Position numbers and translations under genes: made by a program. Under the pieces are notes generated by a model. It was not told where the DNA came from. It was given only the letters and a program-made list of their open reading frames with translations, and ran no database searches. This document shows positions 4,379-9,783 of a stretch of DNA of 10,898 nucleotides, piece after piece (within the stretch, counting starts at the first letter, position 1; each line of letters opens with the position of its first letter). This stretch comes from Candidatus Hermodarchaeota archaeon. Its GTDB lineage: Archaea > Asgardarchaeota > Lokiarchaeia > Sigyniarchaeales > SOKP01. The DNA is taken from assembly GCA_048885925.1 (NCBI GenBank), contig JBHLLG010000096.1:1-10898 (forward strand). Direction: 5' to 3'.

Positions 4379-5683
4379 TCAATCCCAAGTTGGCTTTTTT
4401 ATGCTCTCATCATCATCTTCAGAATGTATACGTTTTAAATCTATATCTTGATAACCTGGAAGAACTCCTAACATTCTTCTCATAGCAAATTCAACATCCT
4501 TCGCTGAAGCAATAAATCGACCAACTATTAAGATATCTGCTCCTTGATCTATTGCATATGTTGCGGTACTAGGTTCAATTCCTCCAGCAACTGCAACTAA
4601 TACTCTATCTCTTCCTGAGGCTTTCTTTTGACCAGCATAAATTTCTTTAATTTTAGGAACTAAACCCCATCTAGCTCTCTGTTCCGCATCAGGAGACTTA
4701 TCTCCCACGGCAGATTGCTCAACATCAATAGCTCTATGGATTATAACAACATCAGGGATTTGTCTCAAAGATTTTAATTTCTCAAGAGGATTTTCAACTT
4801 CCATTGTATCAACAAAAGCGTGTATACCAAGTCGTTGTGCTTCTAAAATGAATTTATCGAGTGAAGAAGATGAAGCTAATCCACTTGCTACAACTCCGTC
4901 AGCAGTGGCATCAAATGCAAAGTCAACCTCTAATTTTCCAACATCTAAAGTCTTTAAATCAGCTACAATAAATTTATCTTTAGCAACCTCTCGAATTTTC
5001 TTAATCGATTCTACACCATACTTTTTTAGAAATGGAGTACCAACCTCTAAAATAATACGATCACTCTTTGGCAATTCCTTGACAACTTTCATTTGTCTCT
5101 CTAAAGCGGGATGATCTAATGCCACTTGGATATAGGGTGGACGCCAAAGCCTAGGAACTCGTATTCCAGCAACAGGGTGTTTTGCTCTATCTTTATCATA
5201 AAATATTTTCTCAATTGGAGGATATCCTTTTAAAGCTCTCTGGATTGCTAACTTTGTAGCACCATAGTTATATTGATAAATTTTACGATAATCTTCAGCT
5301 GCAGGATGTATATATACACTTGCAATTATTAACCAATCGTCTATTTTATTTAGAGGAATAATTCCTTCTTCTACAGCATCGGCTATCCCTTTAGCAACAG
5401 CTGCTTGAGCAGGACCAAAGATTTTGCTTGCATCTTCCATCTTACTAATTGTTACTTTAGGGACAATAATGGTATAAGGACGTGTTAAAAGATTTGGGCG
5501 AATTCCTGCAAGTAATCCTCCATGTCCTTTTGATGGTTCACTTAATGCGCTTGCAAATGAAATTCCTATAGGTCCATTTTTAGAACCAATTACTAAATCT
5601 ACATGAGCTAAATTTGGGTCTTGATTATCACCAACAAGAGCTTCACCGACAAAATATTCAACAGCTTTAGGCATAATTTTCAC
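4379..5683 (-). CDS. fae-hps: Bifunctional formaldehyde-activating enzyme / 3-hexulose-6-phosphate synthase
   Basis: N-terminal Fae (VGEALVG, AHVDLVIG, RPNL, FGPAQAAVAKGIADAVEEG, YNYGATKLAI); C-terminal HPS barrel (QVALD, LEVGTP, VADLKTLDVG, HRAID, AVAGGI, IVGR). Start GTG 5683 or ATG 5674. Confidence 0.95.
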   Translation of the reverse strand: MKIMPKAVEYFVGEALVGDNQDPNLAHVDLVIGSKNGPIGISFASALSEPSKGHGGLLAGIRPNLLTRPYTIIVPKVTISKMEDASKIFGPAQAAVAKGIADAVEEGIIPLNKIDDWLIIASVYIHPAAEDYRKIYQYNYGATKLAIQRALKGYPPIEKIFYDKDRAKHPVAGIRVPRLWRPPYIQVALDHPALERQMKVVKELPKSDRIILEVGTPFLKKYGVESIKKIREVAKDKFIVADLKTLDVGKLEVDFAFDATADGVVASGLASSSSLDKFILEAQRLGIHAFVDTMEVENPLEKLKSLRQIPDVVIIHRAIDVEQSAVGDKSPDAEQRARWGLVPKIKEIYAGQKKASGRDRVLVAVAGGIEPSTATYAIDQGADILIVGRFIASAKDVEFAMRRMLGVLPGYQDIDLKRIHSEDDDESIKKPTWD

Positions 5684-9043: not shown

Positions 9044-9226
9044 ATGGTAAAAGTAAAAAAGTGTAGTTTCTGTGGTTATGACATCCCAATAGGGAAAGGG
9101 TTTATGTTTATAAAACGGGATGGTCAAATTCTGAATTTTTGCACCAACAAGTGCCGAAAAGCTATGCTTGATTATAATAAAAAAGCAAGAAAGACAAGAT
9201 GGACTGCCCATTACGGAAAACAATAA
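9044..9226 (+). CDS. rpl24e: 50S ribosomal protein L24e (eL24)
   Basis: CSFCG.DIPIGKG.MFIKRDG....FCTNKC...RKTRWT signature. Confidence 0.97.
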   Translation: MVKVKKCSFCGYDIPIGKGFMFIKRDGQILNFCTNKCRKAMLDYNKKARKTRWTAHYGKQ

Positions 9227-9273
9227 TATATTATATTAGTTCTACTTTTTCTAAGGCTTATAAAAAATTAAAA

Positions 9274-9327
9274 TTATTGTAATCGTGGAAATTTGAGTAA
9301 TTCATCGATCAAATCTATATAACCAAT
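9274..9327 (-). repeat. Second, synonymously recoded copy of the rpoN 3' end
   Basis: ATT GGT TAT ATA GAT TTG ATC GAT GAA TTA CTC AAA TTT CCA CGA TTA CAA TAA = IGYIDLIDELLKFPRLQ*, beginning 1 nt after the rpoN stop. Confidence 0.9.
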
Positions 9328-9328
9328 T

Positions 9329-9560
9329 TTACTGTAGTCTTGGAAACTTAAGGAGCTCATCTATTAGATCCACATGACTTATGCTTAGAAAGCGTAAGTG
9401 CTTACTAATCTACAATCATGCGTTTACAACAGAAGCGCTCAATTCCAAGCTCCTTAAAAGCTTTTTCAGAGCTTTCCCCTTTTTCTAACATCTCAAGGTA
9501 CGGTTTATAAACATGAGCAATTAATTTGCCGCAACTGAAGCAGCGGATTGGTATTATTAT
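9329..9560 (-). CDS. rpoN: DNA-directed RNA polymerase subunit N (Rpo10/RPB10), split into two exons (9560-9410 and 9378-9329); 66 aa after removing 31 nt
   Basis: (M)IIPIRCFSCGKLIAHVYKPYLEMLEKGESSEKAFKELGIERFCCKRMIV, then after a 31-nt insert and in another frame (G/S)HVDLIDELLKFPRLQ*. This is the canonical IPxRCxxCG...CCxRM..xHVD signature. Confidence 0.95.
9379..9409 (-). other. Candidate 31-nt bulge-helix-bulge mRNA intron in rpoN
   Basis: Contains in-frame TAG TAA and shifts the frame. Exon-exon stem CGCAUGA/UCAUGUG, central UUGU/GCAU, 3-nt bulges AGA and AAG, inner stem UUAG-U-AAGC/GCUU-U-CUAA with a 6-nt loop. Confidence 0.8.
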
Positions 9561-9567
9561 GGTAATT

Positions 9568-9574
9568 CTCCTCC
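9568..9574 (-). promoter_or_regulatory. Shine-Dalgarno motif of rpoN
   Basis: GGAGGAG, 7 nt upstream of ATA 9560, the codon aligning with the conserved Met1. Confidence 0.7.
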
Positions 9575-9783
9575 ATATTTTCAATTATGGTAAATATTTT
9601 TAAAATTCTATGTTTTAAAGTATCTCTAAACTAAGATTAATTCTGGAATAGTAAATGAACCCTTTAAAAAAAGTTTTACTATTATCTATTCTTAAAAAAA
9701 GAAAATTATCTAATACCTGCGGATATTAATTTAAGTTCTTGAATATTAAGATTTTATTTTTAATTGATATTGAGAGTCGTATA

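Follow-up and report, generated by a model that had tools for sequence, protein, structure and literature searches.

An rpoN gene with two 3' ends in an Asgard archaeon: a probable displaced native end and a candidate bulge-helix-bulge-like mini-intron

How an essential archaeal gene comes to be followed by a second version of its own 3' end, written in largely different codons and detached from the reading frame, is the question raised by the rpoN locus considered here. The gain of archaeal bulge-helix-bulge (BHB) introns, notably of the rare ones that reside in protein genes, is poorly understood. The present locus displays many stages of one process among related species, namely an empty site, a full cassette with an intact endonuclease gene, a broken endonuclease gene, a deleted one with both gene ends left behind, and the intron alone, and it ties a putative mini-intron in an essential RNA polymerase subunit gene to a predicted homing endonuclease. 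The window, i.e. the whole analysed stretch of 10,898 nt from a Candidatus Hermodarchaeota archaeon, is contig JBHLLG010000096.1 of assembly GCA_048885925.1. Homologous proteins bear the name 'Promethearchaeota archaeon' in their sources, which points to Asgard archaea. In the following, numbers preceded by G denote genomes of the genus, with G000 being the genome of the window, and numbers preceded by L denote loci from metagenomes.

Twin gene ends in the window

The RNA_pol_N profile (PF01194) matches the window at 9411-9557 with 79 bits over profile positions 1-49 of 58 and is directly followed by an in-frame stop. As a practical consequence, automatic gene prediction will end rpoN prematurely, at residue 49 of a domain with 58 positions. 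Base 9410 probably belongs to exon 1 as well. The remaining protein end is found downstream in two versions, referred to as copy 1 and copy 2 (Table 1), both of which encode the identical 13 residues and a stop, DLIDELLKFPRLQ*. Copy 2 is offset from copy 1 by 55 nt, and the two differ at 11 nucleotides distributed over nine of the 13 codons, every one of these differences being silent. Exon 1, copy 1 and copy 2 are read in three different frames, and the residues that precede the shared peptide are I-G-Y-I ahead of copy 2 and S-H-V ahead of copy 1 (G-H-V once spliced). When the window is translated in all six frames, no other peptide of at least eight residues is repeated. A repeated 10-mer emerged in none of 100 Markov-resampled windows, and 11 random substitutions left the peptide unchanged in none of 200,000 trials. 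Recomputation thus reproduced the repeat as it had been reported in the preliminary description of this DNA, including its length, its offset and the synonymous nature of all changes, and the claim of three different frames was likewise borne out.

Table 1. Coordinates of the features at the rpoN locus in the window.
Feature	Positions	Strand	Basis or remark
L24e ribosomal protein gene	9044..9226	+	PF01246, 67.6 bits; convergent with rpoN; anchor of native synteny
Native intergenic flank, from the presumed original rpoN stop to the L24e stop	9227..9273	.	Equals the flank past the stop in intron-less alleles
Copy 2, putative displaced native rpoN 3' end (DLIDELLKFPRLQ + stop), now unjoined to the gene	9274..9315	-	Codons and downstream flank of intron-less alleles
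Putative cassette remnant of 13 nt between the copy 1 stop and copy 2	9316..9328	-	Relatives hold the endonuclease gene (~1.5 kb) at the same spot
Copy 1, predicted working 3' exon, (G)HVDLIDELLKFPRLQ + stop, putative cassette-borne import	9329..9378	-	D to stop at 9329-9370
Candidate mini-intron, 31 nt, with bulge-helix-bulge-like fold	9379..9409	-	Excision restores the protein; register uncertain by 1 nt
rpoN (RNA polymerase subunit N/Rpo10) exon 1, ending in ...C-C-K-R-M-I-V	9411..9560	-	PF01194

A duplicated attachment site of an integrase was considered for the twin ends and rejected, given that the copies are not identical (11 of 42 nt differ) and that the open reading frame (ORF) located between the copies in relatives specifies a LAGLIDADG enzyme rather than an integrase.

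The candidate mini-intron and the origin of copy 2

Excision of the 31 nt between exon 1 and copy 1 (30 nt in G046) restores ...RMIV-G-HVDLIDELLKFPRLQ*, in agreement with 32 intron-less loci in which the protein runs ...RMIV-(S/G)-HVD.... In the fold proposed for this insert, the two exons form a 7-bp helix and an inner hairpin makes up the far end. Between them lies a short central helix with a bulge of 3 nt on either side, the one towards the exon helix being on the 3' strand and the one towards the hairpin on the 5' strand. Compared with the canonical 4 bp, the central helix features three standard pairs plus a U-U apposition, and RNAfold alone draws an internal loop at this place. When the fold was imposed on 10 sequences, 97.2% of the cells were paired (29-51% in slid controls), four pairs exhibited compensatory changes, and none of 500 shuffles reached the score; the minimum free energy of the window's intron amounts to -18.9 kcal/mol with a z of -2.76. 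In canonical BHB motifs, each bulge is cut behind its second base. In the present fold, cuts at these places yield Ser or Gly at the junction in all 10 genome alleles (Gly in G000), while Cys would result in G022 from the alternative register. In addition, G000 encodes both the tRNA-splicing endonuclease EndA (PF01974, 101.7 bits) and the ligase RtcB (PF01139, 569.6 bits). From these sequence features we infer that the insert is a BHB-like intron which is removed from the mRNA by splicing. A self-splicing group I intron was rejected as a candidate on account of the insert's length of only 31 nt, its BHB-like fold and the lack of any match to an Rfam family within the window, in which no tRNA gene was found either.

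The relation of the two copies to the intron-less alleles of other genomes is asymmetric. Past copy 2, the window continues with the sequence found downstream of the rpoN stop in intron-less alleles. Copy 2 also shares its codons with these alleles, while copy 1 uses others. Accordingly distributed are the mean differences: copy 2 of the window differs from native ends by 4.8 and from copy 1s by 9.0 on average, and copy 1 differs from native ends by 9.7 and from other copy 1s by 6.5. Three carriers of the interrupted allele with close non-carrier relatives were chosen from a tree of the S6e and L24e genes. From copy 2 (or from just past the lost native stop) onward, the members of each pair are 94.2% identical over 1412 nt (G016/G066), 95.1% over 1476 nt (G046/G065) and 93.5% over 953 nt (G001/G050), whereas exon 1 of the same pairs is only 80.5-82.6% identical and copy 1 matches the native end at 81-82%. 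Moreover, an intron-less contig from sequencing run X1 aligns to 9187-9315 of the window and resumes in exon 1 at 9423; the 21 letters between the two parts encode R-M-V-V-G-H-V. A native C-terminus that is displaced downstream and stands nearer to the native ends of close relatives than the inserted end does is a trait of the mORF-type elements considered below. As judged from these comparisons, copy 2 is the original rpoN 3' end of this archaeon, and copy 1 together with the end of exon 1 is foreign.

Traces of the imported segment are also discernible where copy 2 begins on its left. Here, the 10-20 nt ahead of the native part are of the cassette type in G016 and G046 and not of the native one, which implies a crossover inside the gene end. 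In the window, the GGT TAT ATA just before copy 2 constitutes the right arm of the cassette; TAT-ATA-GAT also occurs in G016, with related forms in G023, G022 and L119. The first 6 nt of the 13-nt remnant resemble the sequence past the copy 1 stop of G008, and the rest of it, extending into the GAT of copy 2, corresponds to the TAT-ATA-GAT arm. An ATT GGT ahead of copy 2, which had earlier been taken to support Gly at the junction, does not serve this purpose, for its GGT belongs to the right arm of the cassette and is not native; support for Gly comes instead from the splice register, which places Ser or Gly at the junction of every one of the 10 genome alleles.

Three readings of copy 2 had been put forward in the preliminary description: the displaced 3' end of an intron-less allele, an alternative 3' exon reached by excising 86 nt, and a scar left by an element that integrates in rpoN and brings a new 3' end along. 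The first is sustained by the flank, the codons and the identities within close pairs, and the third by the endonuclease cassette that is still present in relatives. These two readings are one and the same story, with a homing-endonuclease cassette as the element. The comparison with the rpoN alleles of relatives, which had been proposed at the time, placed copy 2 with the native ends and copy 1 with the other copy 1s, and the likewise proposed look for larger elements at this site in relatives disclosed an endonuclease ORF between the copies in G008, G051, L119 and G022.

Of the 17 interrupted alleles considered, 13 possess a second copy (12 of 16 when the identical L098 and L119 are treated as one), L136 having been left out of the 17 because its sequence ends 96 nt past the motif. 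None was found in the interrupted alleles G001, G054, G058 and L130, nor in any of 37 intron-less loci, 27 of which hold a recognisable first copy. With respect to the encoded residues, copy 1 shows no change across 17 alleles (15 distinct) despite 18 variable sites, and the native ends show none across 32 loci (25 distinct), while the 13 second copies (12 distinct) display six additional residue types. In addition, the His that precedes the gene end is invariant in the 32 native ends and usually replaced by Tyr or lost before second copies. Because residue changes are confined to the second copies, copy 2 is, on the evidence of these alignments, a decaying relic and not an alternative exon. 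Intron-less alleles of different species differ among themselves as much as copy 1 differs from copy 2. Since decay affects the second copies only, the entirely silent pattern in the window reflects the ordinary divergence of two orthologous ends, each selected in its own lineage, rather than present selection on both. The earlier proposal of protein-level selection on both copies therefore holds for copy 2 as long as it was the working gene end in the host lineage, and no longer applies to the present, in which second copies gather residue changes.

The endonuclease gene, mobility of the allele and alternative explanations

The space that separates copy 1 from copy 2 is occupied, on the opposite strand, by an intact ORF of 488 aa in G008 and of 486 aa in G051; L119 features an ORF of 414 aa and G022 a broken one at the same place, and G001 retains a broken ORF but no second copy. 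The 13 nt left between the copies of the window comprise no ORF, and a search of the G000 genome returned no match to the endonuclease. Its former presence at the G000 locus is suggested by the relatives and by the 6 nt shared with G008 past the copy 1 stop.

The assignment of the ORF relies on motifs and predicted structure. The G008 ORF matches PF14528 with 24.5 bits (cut-off 22.5), as do 14 of 28 family members, and two LAGLIDADG-type motifs with invariant acidic residues are recognisable. Invariant positions are G213, L215, G219 and Y318-D319-G320-D321-G322, with D218 being nearly so. Sequence searches against the PDB yielded no match with a single sequence, a chance match (E 0.57) with a profile of four sequences and a non-significant one to I-CreI at the motif (E 0.32) with a profile of 28 sequences; a search by fold was hence required. 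The AF2 model used for this purpose has a pLDDT of 77.3 (an earlier model from four sequences, with a pLDDT of 50.9, was not used for the fold search), and its top Foldseek matches are all LAGLIDADG enzymes, i.e. bI3 maturase, I-AniI, PI-SceI, I-SceI and I-DmoI, at a probability of 1.00. The TM-score reaches up to 0.57 when normalised to I-DmoI. A weak NCBIfam match to the RpoA'' model (17.5 bits against a cut-off of 783) might, as a guess, reflect an intein region in that model. Taken together, the ORF is predicted to encode a single-chain LAGLIDADG homing endonuclease with two motifs, conserved acidic residues and a doubled alpha-beta-beta-alpha-beta-beta-alpha fold.

Homologues with at least 48% identity are located beside rpoN in G008, G051, G022, G001, G023 and G012, and a further fragment was detected in G058 on a short contig of its own; distant paralogues (~30% identity) are located elsewhere. 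In G023, L133 and L134 the gene is situated upstream of rpoN on the same strand, and in G012 it lies beside an intron-less, divergent rpoN end within a block that is inverted relative to S6e-L24e. This varying position indicates that the cassette does not have one fixed architecture. In the endonuclease tree (28 rows, with the genomic context known for six), genes of the downstream, opposite-strand type were not separated from those of the upstream, same-strand type. Extra genes between rpoN and L24e were observed in G008 and G058.

A DNA query spanning the region matched 41 of 53 genus genomes, and the interrupted allele was detected in 10 of the 53 (G000, G001, G008, G016, G022, G023, G046, G051, G054 and G058). 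Beyond the genus, three further families of the order yielded 15 matches, all of them uninterrupted. A pattern scan of metagenome contigs provided 65 loci, eight of which have an interrupted rpoN; as these eight were found by the exon-intron junction pattern itself, they are uninformative on the conservation of that junction, and L098 and L119 are identical in the parts compared. On the S6e+L24e tree of 34 genomes, the 10 carriers require 10 changes, at least six of which are forced by well-supported branches. This patchy presence among close relatives characterises the interrupted allele as mobile, as far as its phylogenetic distribution tells. The last 21 nt of exon 1 are near-identical in all 10 interrupted genome alleles and unlike those of intron-less alleles, which fits co-conversion, though base pairing within the intron fold may account for some of this similarity instead. 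Between G016 and G066, the middle of exon 1 is identical, and both ends of exon 1 as well as 2.2 kb upstream differ. This comparison did not fix the left border of the imported tract, and the contigs of G046 and G065 are too short for it. The 2.2-kb difference further upstream indicates that ordinary recombination also shapes the locus.

Several other explanations have to be weighed against the displacement of a native end by a cassette. An assembly chimera of two co-occurring strains, the outcome that the preliminary description had held up against its own reading, is scarcely conceivable. Run X1, which may be the window's own source, indeed contains the intron-less relative with a copy-2-like end; its contig, however, differs from 9187-9315 by eight letters plus five gap letters. 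Both copies are spanned by single contigs in X2 (9150-9650), X3 (9150-9506) and X4 (9243-9650), each with one difference, and by an X1 unitig over 9272-9381 with none, X1-X4 being runs of one study. The same layout also recurs in 12 further alleles of other species, and a chimera can be regarded as excluded. It is also very improbable that the gene end was duplicated in place, after which both copies would have drifted silently under selection. The tandem arrangement at a distance of 13 nt would suit such an event, but copy 2 clusters with native ends from other species, as copy 1 does with its counterparts in other interrupted alleles, the identity within close pairs breaks exactly at copy 2, an endonuclease gene separates the copies in relatives, and the end of exon 1 is foreign as well. 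A comparably small chance attaches to the use of copy 2 as a second, alternative 3' exon via a longer intron (86 nt here), with both ends in service. The intact peptide in the window and the 12-residue core that is intact in 8 of the 13 second copies would speak for this use. On the other hand, the stretch before copy 2 is unconserved among genomes and lacks a GTCATG partner for the 5' exon, in line with the earlier remark that BHB pairing for this route is poor; the His of the native ends has turned into Tyr or vanished; the spacing ranges from 13 nt to ~1.5 kb and includes an intervening gene; residue changes occur in second copies only; and, since the same protein would be encoded, such an exon would be devoid of function.

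With regard to the insert, it is improbable that the 31 nt remain in the mRNA and are bypassed by the ribosome, be it by hopping from one GUA codon to a matching one, a process known from gene 60 of phage T4, or by a shift of frame. In 8 of 10 genome alleles the insert is bordered on either side by a GTA-A repeat, and this arrangement, accompanied by a hairpin and by a stop shortly past the take-off codon, is reminiscent of a hop. Yet the landing codon is not GTA in G000, G054 and L154, and in these three the change is matched in the paired 5' column (C-G to U-A), as would suit an RNA helix and not a match between codons. A plain +1 frameshift is excluded by G046, whose 30-nt in-frame insert contains stops, and the presence of the EndA and RtcB genes argues against both forms of bypass. 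Somewhat less remote, though still unlikely, is an origin of the cassette-like structure from ordinary homologous and illegitimate recombination between species, with the endonuclease gene as a bystander at an intergenic spot. The locus is variable in other respects, too, as illustrated by the 2.2-kb island of G016, the additional genes of G008 and G058 and the inverted block of G012. Against mere coincidence stand the location of close endonuclease homologues essentially only beside rpoN, the position at which second copies begin on the left, which in all 13 alleles found coincides with the intron insertion site or lies within ~20 nt of it, and the tie of second copies to the interrupted state. 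Moreover, the same layout is documented for endonuclease-borne elements of fungal mitochondria, as outlined in PMC3630166.

A proposed route of invasion and its counterparts in known systems

The reading preferred here, which can be advanced with good though not full confidence, is that copy 2 represents the displaced native end and that a mobile endonuclease cassette invaded rpoN at the V-(S/G)-H-V-D codons. In its complete form, the cassette would begin with the mini-intron and a donor-type 3' end (copy 1). A single-chain LAGLIDADG gene, free-standing and encoded by the opposite strand, would come next, followed by a short right arm that is presumably the stump of a gene end displaced in an earlier round. 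The endonuclease would cleave an rpoN allele devoid of the intron, either at the place of insertion or close to it, and the break would be repaired from a cassette-bearing allele. During this repair, the left end would pair within exon 1, thereby converting at least its last 20-50 nt, and the right end would pair with the right arm of the cassette, so that everything between is copied in. The recipient's own gene end would remain downstream as copy 2, a mosaic of donor and native sequence. The new allele would presumably be immune, as the intron splits the target, and the mRNA would be mended by EndA and RtcB, leaving RpoN unchanged. Subsequently, the endonuclease gene would decay (G022 and G001) and be deleted (G000, G016, G046 and L102), and the loss of copy 2 would constitute the last step (G054 and G058). 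The end state proposed for the window comprises the intron, copy 1, 13 nt and copy 2; alternatively, the window may hold a derivative devoid of the endonuclease that was acquired by ordinary recombination.

A further-reaching interpretation, offered tentatively and with slightly less than even confidence, regards the locus as an archaeal counterpart of collaborative homing, in which a free-standing LAGLIDADG endonuclease would spread a protein-spliced (BHB) mini-intron in an essential Asgard gene, copy 2 serving as the downstream recombination arm that is regenerated with each invasion. If this interpretation is true, BHB introns of protein genes can be gained by homing at the DNA level, which would provide a concrete and testable route for the entry and persistence of such introns in the closest archaeal relatives of eukaryotes. 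In any case, the foreign rpoN end can mislead gene phylogenies. Among the papers searched, none combines archaea, intron, rpoN and splicing endonuclease, and the papers retrieved on Asgard BHB introns did not, as judged by title or abstract, concern mRNA introns. New in this case are the host, the gene and the intron type, within kinds of element that are already known.

The closest counterparts are the mORF elements of fungal mitochondria, which, according to the account given in PMC3630166, were first reported from atp6 of Allomyces macrogynus and later from atp6, atp9, cox2 and nad3 of Glomus. As outlined there, these elements place an endonuclease ORF, either LAGLIDADG or GIY-YIG, at the 3' end of a conserved gene, join an imported C-terminal piece to that gene and displace the native C-terminus downstream; the displaced end is nearer to close relatives than the imported piece, and the protein is kept while the DNA differs (PMC3630166). 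The imported and the displaced end have their equivalent in the rpoN locus of the window, and an endonuclease ORF lies between the two ends in relatives; the pattern of an imported and a displaced native C-terminus is thereby extended to an archaeal chromosome. Unlike the mORF elements, however, the present cassette resides in an essential RNA polymerase subunit gene of an archaeal chromosome, its endonuclease ORF lies on the opposite strand without in-frame fusion and is absent altogether from the window, and the imported end carries a 31-nt candidate mini-intron of the bulge-helix-bulge type.

In the collaborative or trans homing of phages, a free-standing endonuclease mobilises an intron without an ORF, as exemplified by cyanophage psbA with F-CphI and by T4 mobE with the nrdB intron (PMC2790892, citing Zeng et al. 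2009; Bonocora & Shub 2009). The resemblance, as far as that account describes these systems, lies in a free-standing endonuclease gene that adjoins a conserved gene with an ORF-less intron at the presumed cut site, and in the joint inheritance of intron, endonuclease gene and flanking markers (PMC2790892). In contrast, the introns known from this account are self-splicing group I introns in phage genes, while the one discussed here would be of the EndA type, measures 31 nt and resides in a cellular genome, and cleavage at its insertion site is presumed.

BHB introns in archaeal protein genes are represented by those of cbf5 in Crenarchaeota (PMC2738675). Like the candidate in rpoN, they are described as short introns within an ORF that are presumably removed by the tRNA-splicing endonuclease and are gained and lost among related species; gene and lineage differ, and the abstract of that paper does not connect them with a homing endonuclease or a displaced gene end (PMC2738675). 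Finally, the predicted endonuclease shares its fold with I-DmoI and I-Tsp061I from archaeal rRNA introns and with the intein enzymes PI-PfuI and PI-SceI, the rRNA-intron enzymes being archaeal homing systems that are, as here, associated with BHB introns. Whereas the genes of these rRNA-intron and intein enzymes are located inside their intron or intein, the gene considered here lies outside the intron and beyond the 3' exon, and its product exceeds those enzymes by ~185 N-terminal and ~100 C-terminal residues.

The start of rpoN and a further gene in the window

The start region of rpoN comprises a GGAGG-like stretch that is followed, about 7 nt on, by three ATA codons, while the position aligned with the methionine of the relatives' MIIPIRCF is occupied by neither ATG, GTG nor TTG. 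Translation of rpoN may be initiated at a non-canonical start codon. The corresponding IIIPIRCF form is also present in several relatives. An ordinary annotation elsewhere in the window is listed in the table together with the remaining coordinates.

Coordinates of the features discussed, as window positions
Feature	Position	Strand	Remarks
Fused formaldehyde-activating enzyme (Fae) and OMP-decarboxylase/HUMPS-family ORF	4379-5683	-	434 aa; ordinary annotation
rpoN start region	9549-9574	-	three ATA codons
Match to the intron-less allele in run X1	9187-9315 and 9423 onward		related organism

Variation around rpoN

Sediment sequencing run X1, which contains the interrupted allele, also contains rpoN without the intron from a related organism, and therefore carriers and non-carriers of the interruption co-occur. 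Upstream of rpoN, G016 (L084) features a tract of about 2.2 kb, including a leucine-rich-repeat-like ORF, that is absent from G066 (L085), where the counterpart comprises 0.33 kb; this difference is flanked by stretches of 94% identity, and exon 1 of the two genomes is identical in its middle but different in its 5' part. Between rpoN and the ribosomal protein gene L24e, extra genes are located in two genomes: an ORF of 512 aa that matches beta-propeller proteins weakly in G008 (L067), and one of 490 aa in G058 (L071).

Endonuclease genes at and beyond rpoN

In three interrupted alleles, L074 (G023), L133 and L134, a LAGLIDADG gene precedes rpoN and shares its strand, at a distance of about 130 nt in G023, and the part downstream of rpoN consists of copy 1 (the imported 3' end), a short spacer and the second copy (the displaced native end). 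The endonuclease tree did not set these upstream-type genes apart from the downstream type. Paralogues of the endonuclease of about 30% identity occur on many contigs of the genus genomes at many other loci. Several of them are situated within long open frames (900-1358 aa) that may represent inteins. The window's own genome (G000) has none of these paralogues.

In G012 (L075/L018), rpoN is uninterrupted and its end is divergent (...ITSHVDLIDDLLKFSRLQ). Next to this end lies an endonuclease homologue of 52% identity, convergent with rpoN and contained in a 912-aa open frame, and the orientation of this rpoN-endonuclease block is inverted with respect to S6e-L24e. G012 may constitute a carrier that is protected through sequence change instead of an intron.
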